The notes under the pieces were generated by a model. That model saw nothing but the letters and a program-made list of their open reading frames with translations, ran no database searches and was not told the DNA's origin. Both the position numbers and the translations under genes were made by a program. Below are positions 16,385 to 51,363 of a stretch of DNA of 64,000 bases, one piece after another (the stretch's first letter is position 1; each line of letters starts with the position of its first letter). Origin of the DNA: Candidatus Staskawiczbacteria bacterium (GTDB taxonomy: Bacteria > Patescibacteriota > Minisyncoccia > Minisyncoccales > Staskawiczbacteraceae); the NCBI GenBank assembly GCA_023245155.1, contig JAHFKV010000001.1, positions 267,034 to 331,033 on the forward strand, written 5' to 3'.

Positions 16385-18613
16385 TTAGTTGGGCAGGGTT
16401 TTTAAAAACGCTTCCACATTGGATTTTGATTCGGGGGAGAGTTTTAAAACAATCAGTGCCTCTTGCCTGGCTTCATAATAATTGCCAGCTTGCCCATAGA
16501 AAAAAGCCAAGGAAGAGTGGTACTGGGCCACTTCTGGGCGTATGCCCGCAAGTTTTTGATAGATGGGCAACAATTCGCGGTAATCCATCAGGGAACCATA
16601 GGCATTAGCCAGCTGGAGTAAATTTACTTCAGAGGTAATATCGGTTCCTTTTTGGTGGGCGATGTCAATATTTATTTTAGCCCCGGGGATATCTTTTTCA
16701 TATATTTGCGTCAGTCCAAGGTAAAAATGGCAATCACCCAATTTAGGATTCGCGTTGATGCAAGTTTGAGCATAGCGGTGCGCTAGGGCAAATTCTTTGG
16801 CCGTCATGGCGATTTGTATGTATTGGGCAAGTATTTCTTGGTGACCCGGAGCTAAGGTGAGGGCTTGGTCTAAATATTGGTAAGCTTGTTTAATGAGTTC
16901 ATTTTTTTTTGAGGAGTTTTGTTCTTGATTTGCCAGTTCATTGGCGGCGTTTCCCATGAAAATCCAATAACGGGTATAGGTTGGCTGGATGACAACCGCT
17001 TGCTTGATTAATTCCAACCCACGCTGTTTGTAAAATAGAGTATTCTGCGGATAAAACTCAGCGCAGGTTTTTGCCATCTCAACGTATTGAAGCCTGGCAT
17101 ATGAATCTAAAAAGCTGTGCTGAACCAGGGCTTTTTCCAACACTGCGATCCCTTGGCCGCAGTTGCCTTGGTTGACTAAGGCTTGAGCAGTGTTAATCTC
17201 TGCATTCAGGGAAAGGGGGACAAGGTTGTATTGCCATATGAACACCGCTGCTAAACCAGCTAAGCCTATTGCCATGGCGGTTTTCCAAATCTTTTTCTTG
17301 GGTATGAGTGGCGGAGCTTCTTGGGTTGGTGTTAACAAAGCCAGGTGGAGCGAATAACCAGCTAGGAAAAAGAAGAGCAGGTAAGAAGAAAACGAATCAA
17401 AACTGAACAAGTTGGCAACCAGGTAGGCCAGTAACGTTGCCTTACTGCCATGGGCTGTTAAGGTTTTTACTTTGCTCAGTTGCCAGAATAGGGCAGCTAT
17501 GAGTCCCAGATACGCCAGCAGGCCAAGGATGCCCGCGTCGTTCATGGTTTGGATAAAAATGTTGTGGGCCCGATCCCACCAGGATAAAATTCCTTCCAGC
17601 GAGGGACTGGGCTGGTAGTAATGGTCAAAACCAACAGAAAAATTTTCCGGTCCATACCCCAAGAATGGCTTGGCTTTTACGGCTTTTAATTCAATCCCCA
17701 GAGTGGACAAGCGAGTATCCTCTAGCAGATTTTTGACCATGAATCGGGGGGTTAGGGTGGTAAAGAGCCGGTTTTGTTGCAGAAACCGGGGCAGCGGGGC
17801 AAGGTTAATATAAGCAATGCCGGCAATTGCTATGAGAAGCAATATCACCGCGGCTCTTTTGAAAATTCGTATTTTTTTGAATCCCGCCTGTTCGGTGATA
17901 GGGTACCAAATAAGAAAATAGGTGGCTCCCACCCCAATTCCCAGGTAAGCTGCTCGGGTACCGCTGAGTAATATAGCTAATAAGCATACTGCGCCACATA
18001 CCCCATAGAATATTTTTTTTGTTCGGCACGGTTCTTTCAGGAATCTTACTGCTATCATGAAAACTAATAATAAAAGATACACCGCTAAAAGAATGGCGTT
18101 TCCCATGGTTCCCGTGGGGCGACTTTGCGGCGCACCGAAGATGCCATAGTATTGAGAAATGGCCACCAGGGAGATCAAAGCTCCTATGAGAATAGAAAAA
18201 TCCCAAAGTTTTTCCCATTCTTGGCGCGTTAAGGTAAGATAGGCAACCATAGCCACGACGATATAACCAGCAAAGGTGACAAAGCCACCGCCCCGGTAAG
18301 GGCTTGACCATAAGCTGGTTTGGGGATCAACAGAAAAGAGCGTAGCTAGCCCATAGGCTCCTAATAGGATTGCCAAGAACCAGGCAGTGTAAGCTTTTTT
18401 TAAATGCAGGGAGTTAAACCTTGCCAAATTCTGCGGCCATTGGAAGGCAAGGCCGACGCATAAAATCGTTAGAATGATTCTAAAAATAACCGTTTTGCCA
18501 AAATCCGGCGGGAAAAACCAGGGTTGCCATAATAAGAGGGGCAGAGCCAATATTACAAAAAATCCGGCCAAATACAGCCAATGAGATTGATAAAAAAACG
18601 CGTTGTTTTTCAT
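16385..18613 (-). CDS. O-antigen ligase/Wzy_C-domain polytopic membrane protein fused to a C-terminal TPR domain
   Basis: 742 aa. About 10-12 TM segments with LSGTRAAYLG. The C-terminal ~300 aa has TPR-like repeats (AYQYLDQALTLAPGH..., YYEARQEALIVLKLSPES). Confidence 0.8.
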   Translation of the reverse strand: MKNNAFFYQSHWLYLAGFFVILALPLLLWQPWFFPPDFGKTVIFRIILTILCVGLAFQWPQNLARFNSLHLKKAYTAWFLAILLGAYGLATLFSVDPQTSLWSSPYRGGGFVTFAGYIVVAMVAYLTLTRQEWEKLWDFSILIGALISLVAISQYYGIFGAPQSRPTGTMGNAILLAVYLLLLVFMIAVRFLKEPCRTKKIFYGVCGAVCLLAILLSGTRAAYLGIGVGATYFLIWYPITEQAGFKKIRIFKRAAVILLLIAIAGIAYINLAPLPRFLQQNRLFTTLTPRFMVKNLLEDTRLSTLGIELKAVKAKPFLGYGPENFSVGFDHYYQPSPSLEGILSWWDRAHNIFIQTMNDAGILGLLAYLGLIAALFWQLSKVKTLTAHGSKATLLAYLVANLFSFDSFSSYLLFFFLAGYSLHLALLTPTQEAPPLIPKKKIWKTAMAIGLAGLAAVFIWQYNLVPLSLNAEINTAQALVNQGNCGQGIAVLEKALVQHSFLDSYARLQYVEMAKTCAEFYPQNTLFYKQRGLELIKQAVVIQPTYTRYWIFMGNAANELANQEQNSSKKNELIKQAYQYLDQALTLAPGHQEILAQYIQIAMTAKEFALAHRYAQTCINANPKLGDCHFYLGLTQIYEKDIPGAKINIDIAHQKGTDITSEVNLLQLANAYGSLMDYRELLPIYQKLAGIRPEVAQYHSSLAFFYGQAGNYYEARQEALIVLKLSPESKSNVEAFLKTLPN

Positions 18614-18665
18614 GTAACTTTATGATATAAGTAAAACATATAAAAATCAACGCGAACTACTGCCC

Positions 18666-20108
18666 TTGAAGATAATACGCCTCCTTTTTACTAATATCGG
18701 CATCAAACAAACTCTCTTGAAAAACACCTTTTGGCTGGTTTTGGCGGAAGCGGTGATTAAAATTTTGAGTTTGGTACTGATCATTTATATGGTCAGGGTG
18801 TTGGGGGTGACTCAATATGGTAAGTTTACCTTTGCGTTTTCGTTCGTTTCCATTATGGCCATTTTTTCTGATTTGGGAGTGGTGGATTTTTCCACCCGGG
18901 GGTTAGCTCGTAATAAAAACAACGAAGAAAGGTTTTCGGGTATTTTTACCCTTGAAGCGCTCTTGTGTGTGTTCATGCTTGGAGTTTCCGTTGTGGGATC
19001 TTTTTTTATTACTCCCGATTCAGAAATTAGGAAAATCATTTGGATCCTAAGTATCTTTTTTATCAGCAATAGCTTGTTCGGGATTATTTTTTCTTTCTTG
19101 CGGGCGCGGCAAAATATGGAATACGAAGCCTTGATTCGGATTGCCCAGTCTTTGGCAAACACCTTGGTGGTTTTTTTCGTTATTCTTTACCTCCCCTCTA
19201 TCGGTAATGTTAGCTATGGTTACCTGATTTCAAATTTAATCATACTCTTCTTCTTGTTATTGTTGTTCCGGGCCCGTTTCCAGCCTATTCACTTGCACTT
19301 GGAGAAGCATTCCTTAGATGTTCTTAAAATGTCTTGGCCCATGAGCCTTGGGTTTGTGGCAAGCTGGACCTATCTTTCCATTAATTCAGTGATGCTGGGG
19401 TATTTTAATTTGATCACTGAAAACGGCTGGTATAATGCTGCTTCTCGGATTGCTCTGGTGGCCATTATCCCCGCCACTCTGATTTTGAAAACTTTTTATC
19501 CCATGCTGAGTAACTTCTATGTCTCATCAGCAGAAAAACTCCAGAAATCCTGGGATTATCTGGCACAATCAATGCTCTGGCTGGCTCTGCCCATGGTAAC
19601 GGGAATGATTGTGATAGCTCCAAAAATTATCTACGCGTTTTATGGTCCCGGTTTTTCTCCTTCTATCTTGGCTCTTCAGCTTCTCATCATCGTCATTGGC
19701 ATCAGTTTTATCACCATTCCTTACAGTGTCATTTTGGTGGTGGCCGACCAGCAGAAAAAAAACTTTAGTTTAATTGTGGTGGGCGCCGTAATGACCATTG
19801 GGTTGAATGTTATCTTAGTGCCTTGGTTCGGTTTTTACGGCAGTATTATTTCTGCCCTGATTGCTTCTAGCGCGGTATTTTTTGGCACCGTGGCAGTTGC
19901 CCATTATACCACCGCCATCCGCATTGTTAATAAAAATTTGCTTTTGGCAACGGTAATATCGGCCTTTTCCAGTGCTGTTATGTATGGGTTGATACATAAT
20001 CAGTTCATGGATCATGCTCCCTTGGTGATCATCTGCTTCACGGGAGCGCTGGTTTATTGTTTACTATCACTCGTTTTATATAGAATATCCTATGTCCGAA
20101 GCAAGTAA
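18666..20108 (+). CDS. Wzx-like oligosaccharide flippase (MOP superfamily)
   Basis: 480 aa, polytopic, with a typical N-terminus (LLKNTFWLVLAEAVIKILS). The start at 18666 is TTG. Confidence 0.8.
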   Translation: MKIIRLLFTNIGIKQTLLKNTFWLVLAEAVIKILSLVLIIYMVRVLGVTQYGKFTFAFSFVSIMAIFSDLGVVDFSTRGLARNKNNEERFSGIFTLEALLCVFMLGVSVVGSFFITPDSEIRKIIWILSIFFISNSLFGIIFSFLRARQNMEYEALIRIAQSLANTLVVFFVILYLPSIGNVSYGYLISNLIILFFLLLLFRARFQPIHLHLEKHSLDVLKMSWPMSLGFVASWTYLSINSVMLGYFNLITENGWYNAASRIALVAIIPATLILKTFYPMLSNFYVSSAEKLQKSWDYLAQSMLWLALPMVTGMIVIAPKIIYAFYGPGFSPSILALQLLIIVIGISFITIPYSVILVVADQQKKNFSLIVVGAVMTIGLNVILVPWFGFYGSIISALIASSAVFFGTVAVAHYTTAIRIVNKNLLLATVISAFSSAVMYGLIHNQFMDHAPLVIICFTGALVYCLLSLVLYRISYVRSK

Positions 20109-20964
20109 CCCCATTGTGAGCGTGGTCATCCCCACATATAATCGGAAAAAAACCGTGGGCAGGGCCATTCAAAGTGCCCTTAATCAGAGTTTTAAAAACT
20201 TAGAAATTGTTGTTTTAGATGACGGTTCAACCGATGGAACGAATGAGGTAGTGGCAGGCTATTTGCATCATCCTAACATTCGCTATATCTATCAAAATAA
20301 TCAGGGCAGCTTGGACAAAACCATGAATAATCTGGTGCGAGCGACTCGGGGTAAATACATCGCCCCGTTAGATGATGATGATTTTTGGTGTGATGCAGAT
20401 AAAATCAAGAAACAGGTTGAATTCTTGGAAAAAAATCCTGCCTATGTATTGGTGGGCGGTGGAGCCATTAAAATAGACCAAAACGGCAAGGAAATTGTGC
20501 GGTATCTGGTAACCGAACGGGATCAGGATATTCGCCAGAAAATTCTGATGAATAATGCCTTTGTCCATGTATCAACCCTTTATAAAAAAGATGCCTGGGA
20601 AAAGGTGGGCGGCTATGATGAAGATTTGGATGGCGGAGGAGATTGGGATTTATGGATGAAGTTAGGACAGGTGGGGAAGTTCTACAATATGCAAGAATTT
20701 TTCGTAAAATACTCCGGGCACCAGCAAGATAACCCGGGCTATTGCGAAACAAGATACGGAAGGCAAGGATGGTTCCAGCTTAACGTGCGCTTAAGAAAAA
20801 AACACCGCCATCAGTACCCCCATTACTCTCAAGCGTTGGTATTATGCTGGCTGGGGTACGGGTACTCTTTTTTGCCATTCAAGCGTCGCCTCTGGCCCCT
20901 GGTTTTTAAAATAAGAAGTTTTTTATTTAGAAATTCTCCTTACCGCTATTACAAGAGCCAATAA
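20092..20964 (+). CDS. glycosyltransferase family 2
   Basis: VSVVIPTYNRKKTVGRAIQSALNQSFKNLEIVVLDDGSTDGT and DDDD motif. Confidence 0.9.
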   Translation: MSEASNPIVSVVIPTYNRKKTVGRAIQSALNQSFKNLEIVVLDDGSTDGTNEVVAGYLHHPNIRYIYQNNQGSLDKTMNNLVRATRGKYIAPLDDDDFWCDADKIKKQVEFLEKNPAYVLVGGGAIKIDQNGKEIVRYLVTERDQDIRQKILMNNAFVHVSTLYKKDAWEKVGGYDEDLDGGGDWDLWMKLGQVGKFYNMQEFFVKYSGHQQDNPGYCETRYGRQGWFQLNVRLRKKHRHQYPHYSQALVLCWLGYGYSFLPFKRRLWPLVFKIRSFLFRNSPYRYYKSQ

Positions 20965-20967
20965 TCT

Positions 20968-21912
20968 ATGGATGTTATTATCGTTTGTCATACCGAATTT
21001 GGTTTTGTGCGTAACAAAAAAGTTATTTACGAAAAAAAAGCCACCCAAGGCGTTACCAAGGGGGTGCTGAATTTAATGGGGGTGGCAAAAAGGTATAAAG
21101 CTAAAGTAACCTTCGCGGTTATGCCCGAGGTGGCTGAATATTTTCCTAAAGACACCGGTCAGGAAATTGGTTTGCATGTCCACGCGGGCTGGGAAACGTT
21201 TGGGCAAGGCAAAGATGCTTATGAGGTAGGGGATGCCTATTTACGAGTGCATTCCAAGCAATCAAGCGCTTCTACCGTGTTGCGGGATTATTCTTATGAT
21301 GAGCAATTTGATATGATTTGCCGAGGGAAAAAATATCTAGCAGAAATCTTGGGGAGTGCGCCAACCACCTTTGTGGCTGGCCGATGGTCGCTTAACAATG
21401 ACACCGTTAAGGCTTTGGTGGCCAACGGTTTCACCCATGATTGTTCAGCCCAGCCTGGTGCAAAACCTGCCCATCATGATTGGTCGCGGCTTCCCAGAAT
21501 CTGCATGCCGTACCATCCTCATGAACATGACTATCAAAAAAAAGGGGCCGCGCCCCTCTTAATGGTTCCCGGAGCCCAGTATTTTCCGGGTGGCGGTGTT
21601 AACCCGGAAATGGTTCCTTGGGTGGGGCTGGCGTGGCTCAAAGCCTGTTTTTCTGAATATTACCGGCAAGGCGCACCATTGTTCCATATCTGTTTACATT
21701 CGCCCTGCATGACCGATGATTATTTTATTTCAGCCATGGATCGCCTGTTAGAATTCATCGCCGGGCATGAACAGGTTCATTTCAAATGCGCCCGAGAGAT
21801 CCAAGAATACCCCAATCGGCATGTTGCCGCAACTATGTTGCCTTACCTAGCCGGCCTTAATCTGGCCATCATTAAAAGTTATTTTTTAAGTTCTTTTAAG
21901 ATTTTTTTATAA
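20968..21912 (+). CDS. hypothetical protein, possibly a divergent polysaccharide deacetylase-like enzyme
   Basis: 314 aa and His-rich (CHTEFG, GLHVHAGW, HICLHSP). The assignment is weak. Confidence 0.45.
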   Translation: MDVIIVCHTEFGFVRNKKVIYEKKATQGVTKGVLNLMGVAKRYKAKVTFAVMPEVAEYFPKDTGQEIGLHVHAGWETFGQGKDAYEVGDAYLRVHSKQSSASTVLRDYSYDEQFDMICRGKKYLAEILGSAPTTFVAGRWSLNNDTVKALVANGFTHDCSAQPGAKPAHHDWSRLPRICMPYHPHEHDYQKKGAAPLLMVPGAQYFPGGGVNPEMVPWVGLAWLKACFSEYYRQGAPLFHICLHSPCMTDDYFISAMDRLLEFIAGHEQVHFKCAREIQEYPNRHVAATMLPYLAGLNLAIIKSYFLSSFKIFL

Positions 21913-22796
21913 ATAGTTGCCTTGCCAAGTCCGTGGCGTTCCGCCAAATACTGCTGGTGGCCGGTAATTTTTTGGTAGCTATCGTCTATGCCTAAAGTGG
22001 TTAACTTGCCACCCAGGCGGTGTTTTAAGAGTTGTTCGGCGATGAGACTGCCCAAACCTCCGATGGTTCGGTGCTCTTCAATGGTGAAAATGTGTTTCTG
22101 TCCTTTGATTGCTTTCACTAGCGCTGGTTCATTGATTTGGCTTAAGGTGTGCAGGCTGATAACGGTAAGGTGTTTTTTTGATTCTTTCATGGTATCAGCT
22201 ACCGCCAAGCCGGTTTGTAAGCAAGCGCCGGTGGTGATGATGGCGCCGTCATTCCCATTCCGAATTACCGATGGTTTACCTAAAATCGTTTTGACTTTTG
22301 CGGGCATGAGAACGACTTCCGGTTTTAATAGCCGCAGGTAACAAGGGCCGGGTTTTTTGTATGATTGCAGAGTTAATTCTCGGGTTTGAATGGAATCAGC
22401 CGGGGAAATAACCGTGATGTTGGGCAGCGGCCGAAGAATAGAAATATCTTCAATGGCGTAGTGGGTGCTTCCAAAAGCTCCATAGGCAAACCCCGCGCCC
22501 ACGCCCACAATTTTCACATTGAGATTTTGGTAGCAAATGTCGTTGCGGATTTGTTCAAAGGGTCGCATGGTGGCAAAGGGAATAATGGAATAGACGTAAG
22601 GTTTTTTCCCTTCCAAAGCTAAGCCGGCGGCGATAGAGAGCATGCTTTGTTCCATTACCCCGCAGTTAATGAAGCGCCCGGGAAATTCTTTCGCGAAATC
22701 TTCAAAGACGGAAAATCCTAAATCGCCGGTTAGCAACATGATTTGCGTATCCTGGCGAGCCAGTTGGGTTAAGGTATCAATAAATGTTTTTCTCAC
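21879..22796 (-). CDS. transketolase, C-terminal (pyrimidine-binding) subunit
   Basis: 305 aa. MRKTFIDTLTQLARQD...DLGFSV...MEQSMLSIAAGLA. GTG start overlaps the upstream stop (GTGA). Confidence 0.85.
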   Translation of the reverse strand: MRKTFIDTLTQLARQDTQIMLLTGDLGFSVFEDFAKEFPGRFINCGVMEQSMLSIAAGLALEGKKPYVYSIIPFATMRPFEQIRNDICYQNLNVKIVGVGAGFAYGAFGSTHYAIEDISILRPLPNITVISPADSIQTRELTLQSYKKPGPCYLRLLKPEVVLMPAKVKTILGKPSVIRNGNDGAIITTGACLQTGLAVADTMKESKKHLTVISLHTLSQINEPALVKAIKGQKHIFTIEEHRTIGGLGSLIAEQLLKHRLGGKLTTLGIDDSYQKITGHQQYLAERHGLGKATIYKKILKELKK

Positions 22797-23599
22797 AGAA
22801 GTTCTTTGAGGGCTGAATGATATTGCTCTTGATTAGGATTTTTATAATGCCAGGTTAGGGGATCTTTTTCCATGAAAGAAATACCCTTGCCTTTTTTGGT
22901 TTTGGCAATAATTACCCTTGGGCGTTTAATACCCATGGAAGTTAGGGCTTTTTCAATTTGATGATAGTTGTGACCATTGATTTGTGTTGCCTTCCAGCCA
23001 AAAGCCTTCCACTTTTGTAAGAAGGGTTTATTTTTCATAATTTTTTCACTTTCACCTAAACCCTGTTGGCCGTTGTAGTCTATAATAACGGTAAGGTTGT
23101 CTAATTGGTGGTGGGCGGCGAACAAGGCGCTTTCCCAGGTGGTGCCTTCATTGCATTCTCCGTCAGACATTAATACTACCACTTTGAATTTTTTGTTGTC
23201 CTGCTTGGCTGCTAAAGCCATGCCAATGCCCATGGGAAGGCCGTGGCCAAGTCCACCCGTGGAAACTTCAACGCCGGGAGTAAAGCCTTTGGTTGAATGA
23301 CCTGGCAGCAAGCTGTCATTTTGGCAAAAAGTTTCCAGCATTTTTTTCGGGAAAAATCCTTTTTCAGCCAAAATGGCATACAGGGCGGCCACCGCATGTC
23401 CTTTGCTTAAAATAAAGCGATCTCGGCCAGGAGCTTGCGGTTTTTTTGGGGTTACTTTTAAAAAACCAAAATAAAGCACCGTTAAAATATCGGCGCAGGA
23501 AAGAGCCGATCCCACGTGAGATTCTTTAGACAAAAAATGCTGGAGCAAAATGCTTCGACGGATTTCTCTGGAAATTTCTTGGTAGTTACTCTTTTTCAT
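22793..23599 (-). CDS. transketolase, N-terminal (ThDP-binding) subunit
   Basis: HVGSALSCADIL...SKGHAVAALYA...MSDGECNEG. I prefer ATG 23599; the ORF-track start at 23620 is TTG. Confidence 0.85.
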   Translation of the reverse strand: MKKSNYQEISREIRRSILLQHFLSKESHVGSALSCADILTVLYFGFLKVTPKKPQAPGRDRFILSKGHAVAALYAILAEKGFFPKKMLETFCQNDSLLPGHSTKGFTPGVEVSTGGLGHGLPMGIGMALAAKQDNKKFKVVVLMSDGECNEGTTWESALFAAHHQLDNLTVIIDYNGQQGLGESEKIMKNKPFLQKWKAFGWKATQINGHNYHQIEKALTSMGIKRPRVIIAKTKKGKGISFMEKDPLTWHYKNPNQEQYHSALKELL

Positions 23600-24663: not shown

Positions 24664-25176
24664 GTGGCTCAGGGTAGTCTTGAACTTTTGGCGGCGTTGG
24701 CGTTAATCGATCCACGCCAGCCCTATGGCACAGAGCTCTTTGACGCTCTGATTCGCCTTGGTGTTACTCCCTCTATTGAGGCGGTTTGTCTCCGGTTGAA
24801 TTCCGAGCGACAAATCGAAGTCTACCTGACTCGGCGGGCAGAGGATGACACTGCATATCCGGGGATGTATCACTGTCCCGGAACGGTCAGGCGACCACAT
24901 GAAACGATTGGGATGGGGTTTGAACGCCTCTCAAAAAAGGAATTTGGCGTTCCGTTACTATCCTACCGTTTCGTAGGCGAAGTTGATCATCCTGATGAGG
25001 CTCGCGCGCACCTGGTTTCCCAGGTGTATCTGTGTATTCCTCAAGATGGTCCGGGCAAGGGGCAATGGTTTCCGGTCGTGGGGCTACCACAGCCCATGGT
25101 CGAGACCCATGAGAAGCGAATCATACCGGCGGCGCTAGGAGTTTTCGTGGCCGGGAACACTGAATACTGTTGGTAA
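24664..25176 (+). CDS. Nudix-fold-like protein with a degenerate Nudix box (G+C-rich)
   Basis: GAAAGGTGG precedes GTG 24664. GTVRRPHETIGMGFERLSKKEFGV versus GX5EX7REUXEEXGU. The ORF-track N-terminal extension overlaps the minus-strand epimerase. Confidence 0.5.
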   Translation: MAQGSLELLAALALIDPRQPYGTELFDALIRLGVTPSIEAVCLRLNSERQIEVYLTRRAEDDTAYPGMYHCPGTVRRPHETIGMGFERLSKKEFGVPLLSYRFVGEVDHPDEARAHLVSQVYLCIPQDGPGKGQWFPVVGLPQPMVETHEKRIIPAALGVFVAGNTEYCW

Positions 25177-25194
25177 TTCCTTCGCGAATTACGG

Positions 25195-25222: not shown

Positions 25223-25224
25223 CA

Positions 25225-26870: not shown

Positions 26871-26896
26871 AGTATAATAATATATTATAAAATAGC

Positions 26897-36234: not shown

Positions 36235-36242
36235 TTTTTATC

Positions 36243-39437: not shown

Positions 39438-39460
39438 AAAGCGGGCAGCAAAATTCAGTA

Positions 39461-41936: not shown

Positions 41937-41937
41937 C

Positions 41938-44389: not shown

Positions 44390-44393
44390 TCGT

Positions 44394-46238
44394 ATGTGTG
44401 GAATTGCCGGAATATATCGTATTGATCGAAAGCCTGTTGACCAGAAAACCTTGCAGGCGATGGTGGAAAAGCTCAAGCATCGGGGTCCCGATGACACTGG
44501 TATTTTTTTGCGCCAACACGTGGGTTTAGGTCACAGTCGGCTTTCCATCATTGACCTTTCGCCAGCCGGGCATCAGCCCATGCAAGATGCCACCGGAAAT
44601 TTCCAGATTGTTTTTAACGGGGAAATTTATAACTTCAAAGAATTACGGAGTCAGCTGGAATTATTGGGCCACACATTTGTTTCCAAAACAGACACAGAGG
44701 TTATTTTGGCCGCCTACCAAACGTGGGGCTTAGCTTGTCTGGATAAATTGCGCGGCATGTTTGCGTTTGCCATTTATGACGCGCGCCAAAATGAAATATT
44801 TCTCGCCCGCGATCGGATGGGTGAAAAACCATTATATTATTATCATGATGCAAAAAAGCTGGTATTTGCTTCAGAAATAAAAGCTATCTTAGAAGACGCA
44901 ACTATTCCCCGAGAAATTGATCGGCAGGGCCTGGTGAATTATTTTACTTTCGGCCATTCCGTAGCTCCCGATACCATGTATCAAGGCATTAAAAAGTTGC
45001 TGCCGGGGAACTATTTGAAACTGAAAAACGGAGCGGTTACTACGCAAGCATATTGGGCTATATCGTTTGCTCGCCAAGAGGACCGGGGCAAAACCTATTA
45101 TCGGCAAGAAATCCAAAGGCGGTTTGAAGATTCGGTAGCTGAGCGGTTGATTTCTGACGTTCCCCTGGGAGTTTTTTTAAGCGGGGGAGTTGATTCAAGT
45201 GCGGTGGTAGCCATGATGGCCAAGCTGGGAGTCTCGCCCATAAAAACCTTTTCCGTGGGATTTAATATCCCCGGGCAGGAGTTTAATGAATTAACCAATG
45301 CCAAGGTTGTAGCTGATTACTTTGCAACAGACCATCATGAATTATTGCTCCAAGAAAATGATCTGGTTGGCACCTTGGAAAAATTAGTCTATCACTTTGA
45401 TGAACCGTTTGGAGACGCCGCCAATTTCCCCGTTTTTTACATGAGCCAGTTTGCTAAAAACCAGGTGAGTGTGGCATTGACGGGCGATGGCGGAGATGAA
45501 ATTTTTGGTGGATACCGGCGCTATGCCGCAGAGAAAAATCGTTCTTTATTGCTGCCATTGAGCTGGTTGGTTCCTGGCAACCTGGGAGGGTTTCGCAAAA
45601 CGCAAAAATTGGCGGCCGCTTTGCCCTTGGCTGATAATTTATTGCGCCACACCCGCTGGATATCTTTTTTTTCTCCAGCCATGCTGCAGCAACTTTTTTT
45701 GAAACCCATCCAGGCTAATCCCTTGAAAATGTACCAGCAGTATTTTAACGGTGCTTCGTTTGCCAGCCAAGCCGATGCGATGATGTATTTGGATCAAAAG
45801 ATTTTACTGCCAGACGCTTATCTGGAAAAAGTGGACAAGGCCAGTATGGCGGTGGGATTAGAAACTCGGCCGCCGCTACTTGACCATCGTTTGGTGGAGC
45901 TTGCCAATACCATACCGGTCAAATATAAAATCAGGGGATTTGAAGGCAAGCTGATTTTTAAAGAAGCCATGGCCGGCTTGTTGCCCAAGTCAGTGTTACG
46001 CAAAAAGAAACATGGCTTTGCGGTTCCCACTAATCGCTGGTTCCGGGGGAAATTGCAGCGCTACCTTGCTGAAGTTTTGTTTGACCCAAAAACTAAAAGC
46101 CGCGGCTATTTTAATTATGAGTATATTGAAAAACTTTACCAAGCATATCAGAACCAAAACCAACCTTTTGATTCCCAGCTTTGGCTCTTGTTAAATTTCG
46201 AACTCTGGCACCGCCAGTATTTAGACAAATCATTATGA
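44394..46238 (+). CDS. asnB: asparagine synthase (glutamine-hydrolysing) family amidotransferase
   Basis: MCGIAGIY Ntn-Cys start at 44394; SGGVDSS PP-loop motif. Confidence 0.9.
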   Translation: MCGIAGIYRIDRKPVDQKTLQAMVEKLKHRGPDDTGIFLRQHVGLGHSRLSIIDLSPAGHQPMQDATGNFQIVFNGEIYNFKELRSQLELLGHTFVSKTDTEVILAAYQTWGLACLDKLRGMFAFAIYDARQNEIFLARDRMGEKPLYYYHDAKKLVFASEIKAILEDATIPREIDRQGLVNYFTFGHSVAPDTMYQGIKKLLPGNYLKLKNGAVTTQAYWAISFARQEDRGKTYYRQEIQRRFEDSVAERLISDVPLGVFLSGGVDSSAVVAMMAKLGVSPIKTFSVGFNIPGQEFNELTNAKVVADYFATDHHELLLQENDLVGTLEKLVYHFDEPFGDAANFPVFYMSQFAKNQVSVALTGDGGDEIFGGYRRYAAEKNRSLLLPLSWLVPGNLGGFRKTQKLAAALPLADNLLRHTRWISFFSPAMLQQLFLKPIQANPLKMYQQYFNGASFASQADAMMYLDQKILLPDAYLEKVDKASMAVGLETRPPLLDHRLVELANTIPVKYKIRGFEGKLIFKEAMAGLLPKSVLRKKKHGFAVPTNRWFRGKLQRYLAEVLFDPKTKSRGYFNYEYIEKLYQAYQNQNQPFDSQLWLLLNFELWHRQYLDKSL

Positions 46239-47401
46239 AAAATCCAAACTTAAAAATTTGTCATATTGCCAGCGTTGATATTACGGTAAAGTATTTACTC
46301 ATGCCTCAGTTAAAGTTTTTGGCTGGCCATGGGTATCAGGTGTATGCGGTTTGTTCTCCGGGGATGTTGACAGAAGAAATTAAAAAAGAAGGGATCAGGC
46401 TCCACCATATTCCTATTCCCAGGAAGTTATTTACCCCAGTAGCTGACATTTTGGCGTTAGTGAAACTATACTGGTATTTTAAAAAAGAAAAATTTGATGT
46501 GGTGCATACCCATGCGCCCAAACCCGGATTCCTCGGCCAGTTAGCTGCCAAGATGGCGGGGGTTCCCGTGATTATTAACACCATTCATGGCTTATATTTT
46601 ACCGAACATTCTTCCTGGCTGAGAAGAGCCGCCTTTATTGCCATTGAAAGAGTTTCCGCCAAATGCTCTACCCTGATTTTTTCCCAGAATCAAGAAGATA
46701 TGGAAACCATAGTCAAAGAGGGAATCGCCACAAGAGAAAAACTGCGGTATCTGGGGAACGGGATTAATATGCGACGCTTTGATCCTGAAAAATTCAGCCA
46801 ACGGTTTATTGAAGAGAAGAAAAAAACCTTAGGCATTCCAAAGGGCAAGGTGGTGATTGGTACCACGGGGCGTTTGGTTTGGGAAAAAGGGTATCGGGAA
46901 ATATTTTTAGCTTTGCAGGAGGTGATTAAACGGTATCCGAATATATTTTTTGTGGCCGTGGGGCCCCAAGATAAAGAAAAGCGTGATGGTTTTGGCTCCG
47001 ATGCGATTACCGCATACGGGTTGGAAAACTACACCCTCTTTTTGGGAGAACGCAAAGATATGGAAGAGTTGTATCCTTGCATCGATCTTTTTGTGTTTGC
47101 TTCGCATCGGGAAGGGTTTCCTCGGTCTGTCTTGGAAGCCATGGCTATGGAGCGACCCATTATTGCCACCAACATTCGTGGTTGCCGGGAAGAAATTACT
47201 GACCGTCAGCACGGATTGTTAGTACCTCCCAAAAATTCGTCGGCCTTGGCCCAAGCTATTATCTCCTTATTACAAGATGTACCCAACGCACGGATGTTGG
47301 CAAAAAATGCTAGAATAAGGGCATTGGCGGAGTTTGACGAAATGACGGTTTTTAACCGGTTATTGAAAGGATATGAAACATGTTTTGAAAAGAATCATTG
47401 A
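46235..47401 (+). CDS. glycosyltransferase family 4 (GT-B)
   Basis: REGFPRSVLEAMAMERPIIATNIRG. ATGA overlap with asnB. Confidence 0.88.
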   Translation: MKNPNLKICHIASVDITVKYLLMPQLKFLAGHGYQVYAVCSPGMLTEEIKKEGIRLHHIPIPRKLFTPVADILALVKLYWYFKKEKFDVVHTHAPKPGFLGQLAAKMAGVPVIINTIHGLYFTEHSSWLRRAAFIAIERVSAKCSTLIFSQNQEDMETIVKEGIATREKLRYLGNGINMRRFDPEKFSQRFIEEKKKTLGIPKGKVVIGTTGRLVWEKGYREIFLALQEVIKRYPNIFFVAVGPQDKEKRDGFGSDAITAYGLENYTLFLGERKDMEELYPCIDLFVFASHREGFPRSVLEAMAMERPIIATNIRGCREEITDRQHGLLVPPKNSSALAQAIISLLQDVPNARMLAKNARIRALAEFDEMTVFNRLLKGYETCFEKNH

Positions 47402-47975
47402 TGTGGCAGGAGCTTCTCTGGGCCTGGTAATACTTTCGCCGGTATTTTTAGTGGCAGCGCTTTGGATTGTGTTTGATTCTTCCGGTCCCATTTTCTTTTT
47501 ACAAGAGCGGATCGGTAAAAACGGTAAACTATTTTATCCTTTCAAATTCAGAACCATGGTTCAGGGAGCGGCTCAAAAAGGTTTGGGCAACACGGTTTCC
47601 CATGATGACGAGCGTATCACTGCCGCGGGCGCGTTTTTGCGTAAGTGGGGGATTGATGAGTTACCTCAACTATTGAACGTGGTAAAAGGGGAAATGAGTC
47701 TGGTTGGGCCACGGCCAACCCTGCGCTATCAGGTTGAAAAGTATAATGACTTCCAGAAAAAAAGGTTGTTAGTTAAGCCAGGTTTGGCGGGCTGGGCGTT
47801 GATTCACGGCCGGAACGCACTTGCCTGGAACCAGCGTATTGAGTATGATGTTTGGTATGTTGAACACTGGTCCCTTGGCCTGGATCTGTATATTATGATG
47901 AAAACGTTTTATATTATTTTAATCAAACAAGATGGCGTTTATGGCCAGGATGGTATAAACGATTCTTTTGTATAA
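47373..47975 (+). CDS. small phosphoglycosyl transferase (bacterial sugar transferase, PglC/WbaP-C-like)
   Basis: KRIIDVAGASLGLVILSPVFL...KFRTM...DELPQLLNVVKGEMSLVGPRP. Confidence 0.92.
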   Translation: MKHVLKRIIDVAGASLGLVILSPVFLVAALWIVFDSSGPIFFLQERIGKNGKLFYPFKFRTMVQGAAQKGLGNTVSHDDERITAAGAFLRKWGIDELPQLLNVVKGEMSLVGPRPTLRYQVEKYNDFQKKRLLVKPGLAGWALIHGRNALAWNQRIEYDVWYVEHWSLGLDLYIMMKTFYIILIKQDGVYGQDGINDSFV

Positions 47976-47978
47976 CGT

Positions 47979-48377
47979 ATGCAAGAAAGATTTAAAAATT
48001 GGCAAATGCCCGAAATAGAAGACAATAAACCAACCAAGTATAATTGGGTGGTTTGGAATGCGAAAAATCTTGAATTGGGTAAATATACCGATATCGGCGC
48101 TTTCACCTATGTTAACGCAAAACATGGGGTGGTGATTGAAGATGAAGTTCAAATCGGTTCACACTGTTCAATTTATTCCGTTTCCACCATAGACAATAAA
48201 CAGGGCAAAGTGGTTTTGAAAAAAAACTGCAAAATCGGCAGCCATTCAGTTATTATGCCTGGCGTGACGGTTGGTGAAAATTCCGTGGTCGGCGCTTTCA
48301 GCTTCGTTACTAAAGATATTCCTGACAACGTGGTGGCATTTGGAATCCCCGCAAAATTGATAAGAAAGTTATCGTAA
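47979..48377 (+). CDS. hexapeptide-repeat (left-handed beta-helix) acetyltransferase
   Basis: 132 aa with repeated [LIV]G-x4 hexapeptides (IGSHCSI, IGSHSVIMPGVTVGENSVVG). Confidence 0.8.
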   Translation: MQERFKNWQMPEIEDNKPTKYNWVVWNAKNLELGKYTDIGAFTYVNAKHGVVIEDEVQIGSHCSIYSVSTIDNKQGKVVLKKNCKIGSHSVIMPGVTVGENSVVGAFSFVTKDIPDNVVAFGIPAKLIRKLS

Positions 48378-48383
48378 CTTTTT

Positions 48384-49523
48384 ATGACTAAGCGTACAAA
48401 ATCTATTCCACTTTCGGGAGCGGATATTGGTCAAAAAGAGATTGACGCTGTTTTGGAAGTTCTTCAAAGTAAGCGTTTGGCCCTAGGGCCGACGTTAACT
48501 GCGTTTGAAAACGCGGCGGCAAGCTTTGTTGGCGTAAAACACGCCGTGGGGGTAAACAGCGCTACCAGTGGCTTGCATCTTATTATCAGGGCCCTGAGAA
48601 TAACCAAGGGTGATGAAGTAATTACCACCCCATTTTCTTTTGTTGCTTCATCAAACTGTATCTTATACGAAGGTGCCACTCCCGTTTTCGTGGATATTGA
48701 ACCGCATACGTTTAACATTGATGTTTCAAAAATAGAAGCAAAAATTACTAAAAAAACCAAAGCCATTTTGGCAGTGGACGTATTCAGTCATCCCGCTGAT
48801 TGGGATGCTTTACAAAAAATTGCTAAAAAACACAATTTATTTTTAATTGAAGATGCTGCTGAATCGTTAGGTTCAACCTATAAAGGCAAGCCCTGCGGCA
48901 GTTTTGGTGACGCGGCGGTGTTCGCCTTTTATCCCAACAAGCAAATTACCACAGGCGAAGGCGGCATGATTCTGACCAACAACAAAAAAATCGCAGACCT
49001 TTGCCGTAGCTTGTCTAACCAGGGCAGGGAGATTAAACATGGAGCTTGGTTAGCGCACGTGAGATTGGGTTACAATTATCGGCTTGATGAAATGTCTTCG
49101 GCCGTGGGCTTGGTCCAATTAACAAGGATCAAAGAAATTTTGGCCAAGCGTAAAAAGGTGGCAGCCTGGTATAGTAAAAAGTTGCAACAGGTTAAAGGGT
49201 TGAGGATTCCGCAAACTGCGCCAAATGCCACAATGAGCTGGTTTGTGTATGTGGTGTTACTGGACCAGAAATTGGCAGGAGTTAAACGCGATATGATACT
49301 GCAGAAGATGGTAAAAAAGGGAATTGCCTGCAGTAATTATTTTCAACCCATTCATTTGCAGCCCTTCTATAAAAAAGAATTTGGTTTTACGGCCGGAGAC
49401 TTTCCGGTTGCCGAAAACATTGGTTCTCGCACTCTGGCTCTGCCATTTTTCAACAATCTTACCCAAAGAGAAGTTGATTACGTGGTAAAAAGTGTAACGG
49501 AAATACTCCATGAATTTGTTTAA
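48384..49523 (+). CDS. DegT/DnrJ/EryC1/StrS-family sugar aminotransferase (PglE-like)
   Basis: AVNSATSGLHL and AFYPNKQITTGEGG (PLP Lys present). Confidence 0.9.
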   Translation: MTKRTKSIPLSGADIGQKEIDAVLEVLQSKRLALGPTLTAFENAAASFVGVKHAVGVNSATSGLHLIIRALRITKGDEVITTPFSFVASSNCILYEGATPVFVDIEPHTFNIDVSKIEAKITKKTKAILAVDVFSHPADWDALQKIAKKHNLFLIEDAAESLGSTYKGKPCGSFGDAAVFAFYPNKQITTGEGGMILTNNKKIADLCRSLSNQGREIKHGAWLAHVRLGYNYRLDEMSSAVGLVQLTRIKEILAKRKKVAAWYSKKLQQVKGLRIPQTAPNATMSWFVYVVLLDQKLAGVKRDMILQKMVKKGIACSNYFQPIHLQPFYKKEFGFTAGDFPVAENIGSRTLALPFFNNLTQREVDYVVKSVTEILHEFV

Positions 49524-51363
49524 AAAAACCGCTGCCAAACGGATGGTATTTTTTATTGTTTCAGACATGGTGCTCATTGCTCTGGCCGTGTGGCTTTCTT
49601 TTTTATTTCGTTTTGACGGTGCTATTCCCGAACTGTATTACCCCTTTATTATTCGGCTCATCATGCTGGCGGTGGTATTTGCAATACCGGTGTTTTATTT
49701 TCAGCGGTTATATTCGTTTTCCTGGTCGTATGTTTCTGCCAGCGAACTCGTGGCTCTATTCAAAGCCACTAGTGTGACTTTTGCCTTCTTGAGCATTACT
49801 ATTTTTTTCTCAAATTATTTTCCGCATTTTTCCAATTTTCCCCGCTCCACTCTGTTTATGAGTTATATCCTGGTGTTTATTTTTACCAGTGCCAGCCGTT
49901 TTTCCAAGCGCTTATATTCTTCAAGGATGCGTTTTTCTAAGGCCTCTGATGGGGATCGGACCTTAATTGCCGGCGCTGGAGACGCGGGCGAACAAATTTT
50001 GCGGGGCATTCTTTCTTCAAAATCCAATTCGTATTTCCCGATTGGCTTTGTTGATGATAATCCCATCAAACGTGGGATAAAAATCCACGGCCTAAGTGTA
50101 TTGGGGAAGATTTCTGACATTCCTGCGCTTGCCAAGGAGCACCAGGTTAAGCAATTGATTGTGGCTTTGCCCTCGGCTGCCAATGCCACTATTAGGAGTA
50201 CGGTGGAACTGGGAAAGAGCGCGGGCATCCGGAAAATTAAAATTGCCCCGGGGCTTAACGAAATTATGCGCGGGGAAGTTTCCTTAAAAAATTTAAAAGA
50301 TGTGGATGTGGAGGATTTACTGGGGCGTGACCCGGTGGTGTTAGATAAAAAAGAAATAGAACAGTTTATAAAAAATAACATCGTGGTCATTACCGGGGCG
50401 GCCGGCTCTATTGGTTCTGAACTTTCCCGCCAAGTAGCGAAATTCAAACCATCAATGCTCATGTTACTTGACCAGGACGAGACGGGGATATTTAATATTA
50501 CCGGGGAAATAAAAAGCAAGTTTCCAGCCCTGCCCATCGTTTCCCGGGTAGTAAATATTACAGACCGGGAAAACATAGAAGCTATATTCAACGAGTATGA
50601 ACCCCAAATTGTTTTTCACGCGGCTGCCTATAAACACGTTCCATTAATGGAAGAGCAGCCCGACCAGGCAATAAAGAACAATATTTTTGGCACCAAAGTG
50701 TTGTTAGATGCCAGTATTAACAGTGGCGTGGAAAAATTTATTTTCATTTCAACCGATAAGGCGGTTAATCCCACATCAATTATGGGTACTACCAAGCGCA
50801 TAGGTGAAATGATGTGCCAGGCCTATAACCAAAAAAACGGCACCAAGTTTATTTCGGTGCGCTTTGGAAACGTATTGAACAGCCGGGGAAGTGTTATCCC
50901 TATTTTCAAGGAACAGATTAAGAGGGGTGGCCCAGTGGAAGTGACTCATCCTGAAATGAAGCGCTATTTTATGCTCACCAAAGAAGCCTGCCTGCTGGTG
51001 ATGCAGGCAGGGGCGATGGGCCAGGGCGGCGAAGTGTTTGTGCTGGATATGGGCAAGCCTGTAAAAATCGTGGATCTGGCCAAAGAAATGATACGTTTAT
51101 CCGGCTTTGAACCAGATAAAGACATTGCCATTATTTTTATTGGTACCCGGCCCGGGGAAAAGCTGTTTGAAGAAATATTAACGGCAGAAGAAGGAATTGT
51201 AAGTACCCAAAACCAGAAAATTTTTATAGCCAAGATGAGTCAGGTGGATGTAACATACCTGGATCAGGTACTGGAATATTTACAGGATATCATCTATAAA
51301 AAAGAATCGGTTCTCTTGGCGCTGTCGCTTAAAAAAATAATCAACCGCGAGTCAGTTATGTAA
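49510..51363 (+). CDS. membrane-bound UDP-N-acetylglucosamine 4,6-dehydratase (CapD/PglF-like)
   Basis: 617 aa. Four N-terminal TM segments, VVITGAAGSIGSEL, YKHVPLME. Confidence 0.9.
   Translation: MNLFKKTAAKRMVFFIVSDMVLIALAVWLSFLFRFDGAIPELYYPFIIRLIMLAVVFAIPVFYFQRLYSFSWSYVSASELVALFKATSVTFAFLSITIFFSNYFPHFSNFPRSTLFMSYILVFIFTSASRFSKRLYSSRMRFSKASDGDRTLIAGAGDAGEQILRGILSSKSNSYFPIGFVDDNPIKRGIKIHGLSVLGKISDIPALAKEHQVKQLIVALPSAANATIRSTVELGKSAGIRKIKIAPGLNEIMRGEVSLKNLKDVDVEDLLGRDPVVLDKKEIEQFIKNNIVVITGAAGSIGSELSRQVAKFKPSMLMLLDQDETGIFNITGEIKSKFPALPIVSRVVNITDRENIEAIFNEYEPQIVFHAAAYKHVPLMEEQPDQAIKNNIFGTKVLLDASINSGVEKFIFISTDKAVNPTSIMGTTKRIGEMMCQAYNQKNGTKFISVRFGNVLNSRGSVIPIFKEQIKRGGPVEVTHPEMKRYFMLTKEACLLVMQAGAMGQGGEVFVLDMGKPVKIVDLAKEMIRLSGFEPDKDIAIIFIGTRPGEKLFEEILTAEEGIVSTQNQKIFIAKMSQVDVTYLDQVLEYLQDIIYKKESVLLALSLKKIINRESVM

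Follow-up and report, generated by a model that had tools for sequence, protein, structure and literature searches.

A ~35-kb glycan-assembly locus in a Staskawiczbacteria-like bacterium, and its possible role in surface-protein O-glycosylation

Among described systems, close parallels to the locus reported here are found in the slg loci of Firmicutes, represented by wsa of Geobacillus stearothermophilus and wsf of Paenibacillus alvei. Their S-layer O-oligosaccharyltransferases (O-OTases), WsaB and WsfB, contain a Wzy_C domain, a C-terminal TPR domain is present in both WsfB and PglL, the S-layer genes sgsE and sgtA adjoin their slg clusters, and the P. alvei locus encodes an AsnB homologue (reviewed in PMC2943079). 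Our locus shares with these clusters a Wzy_C protein that, like WsfB, ends in a TPR domain, an initiating Bac_transf phosphoglycosyl transferase (PGT), rml genes, methyltransferases, an AsnB homologue, tightly packed and overlapping ORFs, a strain-specific part of lower GC, and a nearby surface-protein gene, whose product is here a presumed target, judged from the genes. It differs in encoding two Wzx flippases rather than a Wzm/Wzt ABC transporter, in being about twice as long (~35 kb), in also carrying a GT-C enzyme, a bacillosamine-type initiation module and a CDP-sugar/transketolase operon, and in its CPR host, where the neighbouring protein is anchored by PG_binding_1 instead of SLH.

The Neisseria pgl (PglL/PilO-type) systems are likewise comparable: a reducing-end 2,4-diamino-2,4,6-trideoxyhexose made by dehydratase, aminotransferase and acetyltransferase is followed by a PGT, flipping is Wzx-type, and en-bloc transfer relies on a Wzy_C enzyme tolerating variable glycans, as we propose here. 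PglL/PilO-type acceptors carry Ser/Ala/Pro-rich low-complexity stretches. Unlike pgl, the present island holds a far larger glycan set (9 GTs and 4 methyltransferases) in one place, in a monoderm envelope, and its candidate OTase has a long (~240 aa) TPR domain. Wzx/Wzy O-antigen and capsule loci also combine a PGT, Wzx, GTs and nucleotide-sugar genes with conserved flanks and a variable centre; however, lipid A/core is absent here, as expected for CPR, Wzz/PCP was not found, no separate Wzy was recognised, and the conserved ends would be pathway steps (initiation, acceptor transfer) rather than housekeeping flanks. Finally, the TM-bearing GT2s, the extra flippase and a GT-C with an invariant Asp recall GtrA/B/C, CsbB-GtcA-YfhO and GT39 PMT systems, although the flippase is Wzx-type and not GtrA/GtcA-type, and the GT-C is without the large extracytoplasmic domains seen in PMT, PglB and YfhO.

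The window analysed, a 64,000-nucleotide stretch of DNA, contains at 16385-51363 a genuine ~35-kb glycan-assembly locus made of known part types. Domain and fold assignments, gene order and synteny across relatives bear out the original prediction of a glycan super-locus, with nearly every gene call confirmed by Pfam and NCBIfam. The host belongs to the CPR/Patescibacteria and is Staskawiczbacteria-like, with SecA at most 73% identical to that of Staskawiczbacteria MAGs; this excludes a large-genome Firmicute or Bacteroidete source and upholds the predicted reduced genome. As identical proteins sit on contigs of 429-662 kb (largest 661,750 bp), the locus makes up no more than about 5% of the genome. 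A chimeric assembly, the other concern raised with the prediction, is excluded because the gene order recurs on about six independent assemblies or contigs.

Across 26897-51363, 23 genes run on the same strand with junctions of -62 to +8 nt, as had been predicted. All seven ATGA overlaps listed earlier (29363, 35323, 37073, 39985, 40848, 46235 and 53029) are present, as is an eighth at 33487; such overlaps are ordinary in compact genomes. A promoter-like site (26851-26878) lies ahead of the array, and terminator-like sites, sought at the locus, showed no enrichment. From sequence, a single long translationally coupled operon over this array is plausible; the locus as a whole falls into four transcription units, with both strands used. 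For the last GT4, public gene calling places the start at 46301, whereas the start at 46235 retains the entire GT4 N-terminal domain (Pfam).

Comparison of relatives revealed that the centre of the locus is variable and both its ends conserved. Next to the left end, the forward strand carries a first Wzx flippase (Polysacc_synt; 18666 or 18717-20108) and a GT2 (20092-20964), both identified by Pfam, and a 314-aa CE4 deacetylase-like protein (20968-21912; weak CE4/PuuE matches). On the reverse strand follow the C and N halves of a split transketolase (21879-22796 and 22793-23620) and an SDR epimerase/dehydratase (23586-24539), all supported by Pfam and NCBIfam, then an NDP-glucose 4,6-dehydratase-like SDR (25225-26196; TIGR02622, 210 bits) and a glucose-1-phosphate cytidylyltransferase-like protein (26157-26870; TIGR02623, 229 bits). 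The last two lie below cut-off; several sugar-pathway enzymes of the locus score below NCBIfam equivalog cut-offs. An apparent gap holds a probable gene absent from the original prediction, a forward-strand, GTG-start ORF of 170 aa (24664-25176) that is weakly NUDIX-like (Pfam E 0.004) and is also called as a gene on a Logan contig.

The forward-strand array begins with a GT2 (26897) and the second Wzx flippase (Polysacc_synt; 27891), both from Pfam, and a DegT protein (29363; Pfam, NCBIfam). Two DegT enzymes had been predicted; the family call stands, but this one is RfbH/E1-dehydrase-like and not a plain aminotransferase. Next come two GT2s with C-terminal TM segments (30556 and 31651; Pfam, TM prediction), two methyltransferases (32777 and 33487) and a GT4 (34199), all three by Pfam, a GalE/TviC-like SDR epimerase (35323) and a short, 277-aa Ugd-like dehydrogenase (36243), each matched by Pfam and NCBIfam, the latter with short-form homologues, and a further Pfam-assigned GT4 (37073, its block ending at 38242). 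A low-GC (0.35-0.38) cassette at 38223-40851 encodes an NDP-hexose C-methyltransferase (Methyltransf_13/14 in Pfam; 38223 or 38277-39437), RmlC (39461-39988) and the SDR RmlD (39985-40851), the two Rml proteins scoring above their NCBIfam equivalog cut-offs. The block at 40848-47401, which recurs in relatives (e.g. L135), consists of a GT4 (40848), the GT-C membrane glycosyltransferase (41941-43482; earlier start 41938), a Trm112-like plus Methyltransf_11 protein (43421), an AsnB-type amidotransferase (44394-46238, also with a start at 44376) and a GT4 (46235-47401), assigned by Pfam except for the GT-C. The predicted inventory thus stands for both flippases, the four GT2, four GT4, four methyltransferases and AsnB (Pfam), and for the split transketolase and five SDRs (23586, 25225, 35323, 39985 and 49510; Pfam, NCBIfam). 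E3 reductase, RmlA and RmlB were not recognised in the locus.

At the right end, still on the forward strand, lie the predicted small PGT, a monotopic Bac_transf protein of 200 aa (47373-47975; Pfam), a hexapeptide acetyltransferase of only 123-132 aa (47979-48377), a PglE/PseC-like DegT aminotransferase (48384-49523) and a membrane-anchored PglF/CapD-like 4,6-dehydratase of the SDR family (49510-51363), the last three assigned by Pfam and NCBIfam. This PglF/E/D/C-like module is conserved in relatives beside PGbind-MurB-HPF-SecA: where 8 kb or more precedes secA (45 relatives), PglF was found in 26, PglE in 16, and the PGT and the adjacent GT4 in 15 each. The dehydratase, aminotransferase and acetyltransferase would yield a UDP-2,4-diamino-2,4,6-trideoxyhexose (bacillosamine/AATGal-type), which the PGT would load onto undecaprenyl phosphate.

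Pfam gives no significant match for the protein at 41938, which scores below the PMT_2 threshold, yet a fold search with its AlphaFold model returned GT-C enzymes only, among them Pmt1/2/4, ArnT and PglB, in agreement with the GT-C-like call made earlier. It has an invariant Asp in its first outer loop, and its homologues carry PMT/PMT_2 matches or GT39 labels, some being fused to GT4. This kinship, the two Wzx genes, the resemblance of the GT2s at 30556 and 31651 to polyprenyl-phosphate sugar synthases in their C-terminal TM segments, and the four transcription units across both strands would all suit the production of two glycoconjugates, an Und-PP-oligosaccharide handled by Wzx and Wzy_C-TPR, and PMT-like glycosylation of the GT39 type, with the GT-C moving single polyprenyl-phosphate sugars straight to secreted proteins or the wall. 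We regard this as rather improbable: the GT-C gene is mid-array, inside the conserved GT4-GT-C-methyltransferase-AsnB-GT4-PGT block, the initiating PGT is single, and the GT4 fusions in relatives suggest that the GT-C acts on the same glycan.

The left end is formed by a reverse-strand Wzy_C membrane protein with a C-terminal TPR domain (16385-18613; PF04932, E 4.6e-16). Its 50 full-length homologues share 31-48% identity. In all 23 informative relatives (at least 4 kb beyond this gene) it abuts a homologue of a ~1,100-aa surface protein; on its other side, glycan genes of varying identity are found in 23/25 loci with at least 6 kb, and L132 has the same layout with other glycan genes. The Wzy_C-TPR gene forms a conserved hinge, with the surface-protein gene on one side and variable glycan genes on the other. 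Wzy polymerases show high divergence and specificity for their repeat unit, with which they normally co-vary, while WaaL and PglL are donor-promiscuous. Conservation of Wzy_C-TPR as the glycan genes change fits an enzyme recognising an acceptor and a reducing-end sugar that both stay constant, and we propose that it is an O-oligosaccharyltransferase or ligase. The TPR part has PDB matches; no sequence-level match to solved OTases was found.

The neighbouring forward-strand gene (11924-15301) encodes 1125 aa, comprising a signal/TM segment, a helical PG_binding_1-like domain (PF01471 is frequent among homologues), a PSPTPSPTPNPNPT linker and some nine beta-sandwich domains. The protein is 27.5% S+T, with 7.1% charged residues and a pI of 5.7; its linker is Thr/Pro/Ser-rich, a composition kept in 56 homologues. 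A fold search returned generic Ig-like arrays only and matched no known S-layer protein; S-layers have been observed in CPR by cryo-EM. Its gene lies just outside the interval 16385-51363 first given for the locus; neither this invariant neighbour nor the layout of conserved ends around a variable centre figured in the original prediction. Upstream, also on the forward strand, are genes for an HTH protein (9816-10352) and an ECF-type sigma factor (10403-10912), both assigned by Pfam, and an anti-sigma-like, 231-aa single-TM protein (10958-11653; TM prediction). This conserved block (9816-11653) is found together with the pair of Wzy_C-TPR and surface protein in 12-18 of the 50 relatives, and in L132. 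Since the transferase gene always adjoins its own, this peptidoglycan-anchored protein is the likely glycosylation target, and an invariant Ser/Thr-rich neighbour points to protein O-glycosylation. Against this, no Wzy_C gene lies within 10 kb of a more distant homologue of the surface protein (P0105, 44% identity).

The adjacency could also arise if a variable island was merely inserted beside a conserved core block, to which the HTH-sigma-surface-protein flank could belong. The product might be a polysaccharide tied to the wall or anchored by lipid, for example a secondary cell-wall polymer or lipoglycan, with Wzy_C-TPR acting as a Wzy-type polymerase or a lipid/peptidoglycan ligase and the surface protein as a bystander or polymer binder. 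The Wzy_C domain is common to polymerases and ligases (Pfam), the polytopic proteins of the window include no other polymerase candidate (TM prediction, Pfam), and the gene content overall is that of O-antigen/CPS loci. We consider this possible but unlikely: the 64 kb yielded no Wzz/PCP, no LCP (LytR-CpsA-Psr) ligase, no export ABC transporter and no outer-membrane machinery, the conserved Wzy_C-TPR does not behave as a co-varying Wzy, and the surface protein has a PG_binding_1 anchor, not a polymer-binding SLH-type one. A released exopolysaccharide or capsule for host-cell attachment or biofilm matrix, suggested by a general likeness to eps/cps clusters and by the best score of AsnB, against an XrtA/PEP-CTERM EPS amidotransferase model (below cut-off), seems very improbable given the conserved ligase-type gene, and neither tyrosine kinase/PCP, Wza-like export protein, exosortase nor PEP-CTERM components were found within 64 kb.

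Functional similarity to an slg or PglL-type system is, by analogy, the best explanation, held with moderate confidence overall. Parts for a lipid-linked pathway are present: PGT, two Wzx, eight GT-A/GT-B, one GT-C and a Wzy_C protein. Which sugars are made, in what order the steps run, how the two flippases share the work and, most of all, what accepts the glycan are our inferences. Starting from the diaminotrideoxyhexose, the four GT4 and up to four GT2 would lengthen the chain, using sugars that the locus itself supplies: a 6-deoxy-L-hexose via RmlC/RmlD, possibly C-methylated; a CDP-derived deoxyhexose via the E1-like dehydrase, an SDR and the split transketolase, possibly branched; and a hexuronic acid converted to its amide by the epimerase, short Ugd-like protein and AsnB. 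Three SAM methyltransferases would add methyl groups, and one Wzx would flip the lipid-linked oligosaccharide to the outer face. There, the GT-C may add one or more residues from a polyprenyl-phosphate sugar that a TM-bearing GT2 would synthesise and the second Wzx would flip, before Wzy_C-TPR transfers the glycan onto Ser/Thr of the surface protein.

The locus had been called a large investment for a reduced genome. Its size is confirmed, but such an investment is shared by other genomes: in two relatives, glycan genes span at least 21 kb at the same site, around the homologous GT-C, and one of these clusters ends, as here, at a PglF-metalloprotease junction. The locus is on this ground typical of its lineage and, with about an even chance in our estimate, would represent a Wzx-dependent, undecaprenyl-linked O-glycosylation island of a monoderm CPR bacterium, whose product may be an O-linked heteroglycan on the ~1,100-aa surface protein.

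The window was split into ORFs, and every gene between 1 and 63 kb was searched against Pfam, the sugar enzymes also against NCBIfam. This bore out, almost item by item, the gene inventory of the original prediction, which had described a ~35-kb glycan locus at 16385-51363. The locus encodes a membrane protein with Wzy_C and TPR domains (Wzy_C-TPR; 16385-18613, minus strand), two Wzx flippases of the Polysacc_synt (MOP) family (18666, E 1.4e-27; 27891, E 2.6e-16), four GT2 (20092, 26897, 30556 and 31651) and four GT4 enzymes (34199, 37073, 40848 and 46235), and a 200-aa Bac_transf phosphoglycosyltransferase of the polyprenyl-phosphate initiating type (PGT; 47373-47975, E 3.5e-63). Also within it are AsnB, two DegT-family proteins, five SDR-fold enzymes, a split transketolase and four methyltransferases, among them a sugar C-methyltransferase of the Methyltransf_13/14 type at 38223. 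Searches against NCBIfam correct one of these assignments, the DegT protein at 29363 being RfbH/E1-dehydrase-like, and the protein at 20968 shows a weak likeness to CE4 deacetylases. The only Wzy-related protein in the window is Wzy_C-TPR, the other polytopic proteins being the two Wzx and a GT-C glycosyltransferase; Pfam/NCBIfam scans of the 64-kb window found no Wzz/PCP, LCP ligase, ABC exporter or separate Wzy, and no tRNA was found there. We are highly confident that the genes here assemble a lipid-linked surface glycan. Every part comes from a known family, and the overall logic is that of known O-glycosylation/slg and O-antigen-type loci; compared with the O-antigen/CPS type, PGT and Wzx are present, whereas a dedicated Wzy with Wzz/PCP is missing from the window.

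The locus is arranged in four transcription units: Wzy_C-TPR alone (minus strand); Wzx1, a GT2 and the CE4-like gene (plus); a sugar operon of glucose-1-phosphate cytidylyltransferase-like, 4,6-dehydratase-like, SDR and split transketolase genes (minus); and an array of 23 genes (plus). The sugar operon is broken by a plus-strand, GTG-start ORF of 170 aa (24664-25176), which lies between two minus-strand sugar genes, occupies an apparent 686-nt gap, has a weak NUDIX match (E 0.004) and is annotated as a gene on one public contig and not on another. As had been predicted, the 23 genes run co-directionally over 26897-51363, with junctions of -62 to +8 nt and all seven ATGA overlaps, and we found an eighth at 33487. 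Immediately ahead of the array lies a promoter-like TTGATT-16-TATAAT (26851-26878); promoter-like and terminator-like counts elsewhere were at shuffle background in our scans, and are little informative. The array continues unbroken into the gene for a secreted, PG-binding metalloprotease of the HExxH kind, then murB and hpf. Judged from this layout, one long operon across the array is plausible. At 26870-26897 the minus-strand sugar operon and the array begin divergently, their start codons only 26 nt apart, and the promoter-like site overlaps the first codons of the opposite-strand gene.

The organism and the assembly both bear on how this locus is read. SecA matches its counterparts in MAGs of Candidatus Staskawiczbacteria and other Parcubacteria/Patescibacteria at no more than 73% identity; the guess of a reduced genome was therefore right, and the organism is a Staskawiczbacteria-like member of the CPR/Patescibacteria rather than a large-genome Firmicute or Bacteroidete. 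Proteins identical to those of the locus are encoded on a contig of 429,282 bp and on others, the longest of 661,750 bp, so that 35 kb represents at most ~5.3% of the genome. A chimeric assembly was ruled out: left-end, middle and right-end proteins keep the same neighbours on several contigs, and identical-protein look-ups found the gene order unchanged on a 429-kb ENA contig, four to five further contigs and a 34-kb Logan contig. The GT2 at 31651 was retrieved from apparently one contig and GT-C from none, reflecting differing start-codon calls (352 vs 378 aa and 513 vs 514 aa, respectively). Base composition is even across the window except for a dip at 38000-40000, where the C-methyltransferase and RmlC genes have a GC of 0.35-0.38 and their surroundings 0.42-0.47, suggesting that this cassette is a more recent acquisition. 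One Logan assembly contig ends inside this low-GC stretch.

Relatives were compared from both ends of the locus. For the right end, 80 loci were anchored on secA, with counts taken from the 45 that have at least 8 kb upstream. Here, murB (43/45), the metalloprotease (35/45) and hpf (32/45) are accompanied by PglF (26/45, 57-72% identity), PglE (16/45), PGT (15/45) and the last GT4 (15/45), and genes further upstream of this right-end module are mostly absent or different. For the left end, 50 metagenomic loci were anchored on Wzy_C-TPR homologs (31-48% identity). Glycan genes lie on one side of Wzy_C-TPR in 23 of the 25 loci with at least 6 kb, and their set differs between loci. On the other side, a homolog of a secreted, Ser/Thr-rich 1125-aa surface protein is genetically linked to Wzy_C-TPR in every informative relative (23/23 loci with at least 4 kb) and in a further relative's locus, L132; it is usually followed by a 231-aa single-TM protein, an ECF sigma factor and an HTH gene. 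The 755-kb contig of this relative carries, in order, ClpB, an LTD protein, HTH, sigma, 263-aa, 1115-aa and beta-lactamase-like proteins, Wzy_C-TPR and Wzx, followed by GT4 and methyltransferase genes, a layout matching that of the window with different glycan genes. Since relatives share both ends while their glycan genes differ, this comparison, which the original prediction had called for, reveals conserved functional ends and a variable centre. Around the GT-C homolog, two relatives hold at least 21 kb of glycan genes, and one relative repeats the order GT4, GT-C, methyltransferase, AsnB, (epimerase), GT4, PGT, acetyltransferase, PglE, PglF, metalloprotease. The large investment that had been remarked upon is thus real but lineage-typical, and not peculiar to this genome.

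Several genes outside the locus were also noted. The metalloprotease-like gene (51371-53032, plus strand) encodes a secreted protein of 553 aa that combines an HExxH motif (HEFMH) and a weak match to MXAN_6640 metalloprotease with PG_binding_1 at its C-terminus; the motif and this match rule out an LCP-like glycan ligase. The gene's stop codon and the start codon of murB overlap (ATGA), and the order metalloprotease, murB, hpf, secA is kept in most relatives. Directly after secA (56882-57925, plus) lie two small cupins, of 89 and 87 aa, with a C39-like cysteine peptidase (168-197 aa) between them, and homologs of these were not detected in the flanks of secA-anchored relatives. Two further predicted surface proteins are encoded on the plus strand, a CAP-domain protein (58586-59461) and a 424-aa Lamin-tail-domain protein (8500-9774), at whose position L132 has a 1557-aa LTD and beta-helix protein (2962-7635). 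At least four consecutive plus-strand ORFs of 196-358 aa (59790-63321) have no Pfam match at E <= 0.01.

The sugar enzymes of the locus fall into four modules. At the right end (47373-51363), a membrane-anchored 4,6-dehydratase, a DegT aminotransferase and a small monotopic PGT are all adjacent, and together with an acetyltransferase are predicted to make and transfer a 2,4-diamino-2,4,6-trideoxyhexose. The PglF-like dehydratase matches Polysacc_synt_2 (PF02719, E 1e-113) and carries CoA_binding_3 and 3 TMs. The PglE-like aminotransferase (E 2.6e-125) has PseC as its best NCBIfam model (352 bits vs a cut-off of 423.5). The hexapeptide acetyltransferase, a PglD/NeuD candidate of 123-132 aa, reaches 69 bits against TIGR03570 (cut-off 160.8) over its C-terminal half only. 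A second module comprises RmlC, RmlD and the C-methyltransferase; the first two pass their equivalog cut-offs (TIGR01221, 176.4 vs 155.75; TIGR01214, 268.4 vs 224.05), and NCBIfam recognised no RmlA or RmlB in the locus. The sole NTP-transferase is best matched by glucose-1-phosphate cytidylyltransferase (229.5 bits vs 300.25), and the 4,6-dehydratase-like gene falls short of the dTDP-glucose dehydratase model (202 bits vs a cut-off of 365). The third module, a CDP-hexose branch, comprises an E1-like dehydrase, an SDR and the transketolase; its best-matching families are CDP-glucose 4,6-dehydratase (209.9 vs 278.45) and E1 dehydrase (325.4 vs 423), both below cut-off; no E3 (RfbI/AscD) reductase was present among the Pfam-annotated genes of the window. 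The split transketolase (21879-23620, minus) lies inside the CDP-hexose operon, and the E1-like 3-dehydrase at 29363-30577 (plus); speculatively, the two may yield a two-carbon-branched deoxyhexose by an undescribed route. In the fourth module, an epimerase, a short Ugd-like dehydrogenase and AsnB suggest a hexuronamide. The 277-aa UDP-glucose/GDP-mannose-dehydrogenase-like protein (36243-37076, plus) keeps GxGxxG and the catalytic-Cys motif GGKCLPKD and is without the entire C-terminal UDP-binding domain. Homologs of equal length occur in relatives at 63-73% identity (L012, 3980-4819; L123, ~3371), so this is a conserved short form and not a truncated pseudogene.

The 514-aa membrane protein at 41941-43482 had been called GT-C-like, and its AlphaFold model (pLDDT 85.3, pTM 0.84) substantiates this: in a Foldseek search against the PDB, the best 30 matches were all GT-C enzymes (probability 1.0), including PglB, STT3, Pmt1/2/4, ArnT, DPY19 and ALG3/9. 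Across 53 homologs the first extracytoplasmic loop keeps an invariant Gly-Asp pair (G87-D88), and several homologs carry PF13231 or PF02366. The fold rules out a Wzy polymerase. The protein does not reach the Pfam PMT/PMT_2 gathering threshold (PMT_2, 17 bits vs 26.1). Matches to Pmt1/2/4 would suit a locus making two separate glycoconjugates with GT-C as a PMT-like enzyme, an arrangement we consider improbable. In several relatives, GT-C is fused to an N-terminal GT4 (P0161, P0162, P0172, P0203, P0207, P0218 and P0223; 826-859 aa), mirroring the adjacency of the two genes here (gap 1 nt).

Wzy_C-TPR scores 59.4 bits against PF04932 (cut-off 31.7), and its residues ~500-735 are covered by TPR_14 and PDB TPR matches. 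A sequence search against the PDB returned TPR matches only, and hydropathy and positive-inside counting place the TPR domain on neither membrane side in particular. The neighbouring 1125-aa protein (11924-15301, plus) consists of a signal/TM segment, a helical PG_binding_1-like domain (PF01471 in many homologs), a PSPTPSPTPNPNPT linker and ~nine beta-sandwich domains (model pLDDT 82.8); S+T make up 27.5% and charged residues 7.1%, with a pI of 5.7. The linker is variable in sequence yet Thr/Pro/Ser/Gly-rich in 56/56 aligned homologs, with frequent poly-Thr runs. Its fold search gave generic Ig-like arrays only, with no specific S-layer match, and no DNA repeats were found in the gene. Among up to 8,000 candidates considered, the family has at least 469 members, of which P0105, a distant one (44% identity), lies in a different context with no Wzy_C gene nearby.

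Ligases and O-oligosaccharyltransferases (O-OTases) recognise an unchanging acceptor and reducing end; each Wzy polymerase is specific to its own repeat unit. That Wzy_C-TPR stays conserved next to differing sets of glycan genes argues for a ligase or OTase role; besides it, what is conserved is the module for the reducing-end sugar. The invariant neighbour would be the obvious acceptor candidate, and the adjacency could also merely mark the border of the variable island. We propose, with about even confidence, Wzx-dependent O-glycosylation with Wzy_C-TPR as the OTase and the surface protein as candidate acceptor, each step being read from domains, folds and synteny. The chain would begin on a conserved bacillosamine-type sugar, be elongated and decorated by cytoplasmic GT4 and GT2 enzymes, and be flipped by a Wzx. 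GT-C might then modify it extracytoplasmically from a polyprenyl-phosphate sugar donor, which would account for the second flippase and two GT2 with C-terminal TM, before Wzy_C-TPR would move the finished glycan. O-OTases of Firmicute S-layer glycosylation have Wzy_C, with WsfB and PglL additionally having TPR, some of these loci adjoin the S-layer gene, and that of P. alvei includes an AsnB homolog (PMC2943079). A wall- or lipid-linked polysaccharide, with Wzy_C-TPR as polymerase or ligase, is a less probable product. A released exopolysaccharide seems very improbable.

The structure of the CPR/Patescibacteria cell envelope "remains unclear" (PMC5220378). S-layers have been observed by cryo-EM on CPR cells, Nealsonbacteria included, and the cryo-EM literature we found gives no molecular identity for them. 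On the O-glycosylation reading, we tentatively suggest that the surface protein and Wzy_C-TPR are the structural protein and dedicated OTase of such a Paceibacteria-type CPR S-layer or coat, with the 30-kb variable island between OTase and initiation module as a strain-variable 'serotype' cassette. A Parcubacterium with 20 glycosyltransferases and rmlABCD was reported previously (PMC5220378), and a search of the accessible literature found no paper treating Patescibacteria together with bacillosamine. Within that literature, three features appear undescribed: the architecture with conserved ends in Staskawiczbacteria-like CPR, the bacillosamine-type module beside murB, and the invariant association between Wzy_C-TPR and a large surface protein rich in Ser/Thr. 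As the enzymology belongs to known families, the advance would be in CPR biology and not in a new mechanism. Because CPR organisms spend their lives attached to host cells, the coat on their surface probably has a central part in their biology. Concrete coat candidates come out of our analysis: a widespread family of surface proteins, the conserved transferase Wzy_C-TPR, the conserved initiation module and the variable glycan cassette, which occupies up to ~5% of a genome no smaller than 0.66 Mb. They make the question of the CPR surface coat testable. If the 'serotype' suggestion is true, this cassette would determine how these episymbionts recognise their hosts and how susceptible they are to phage.
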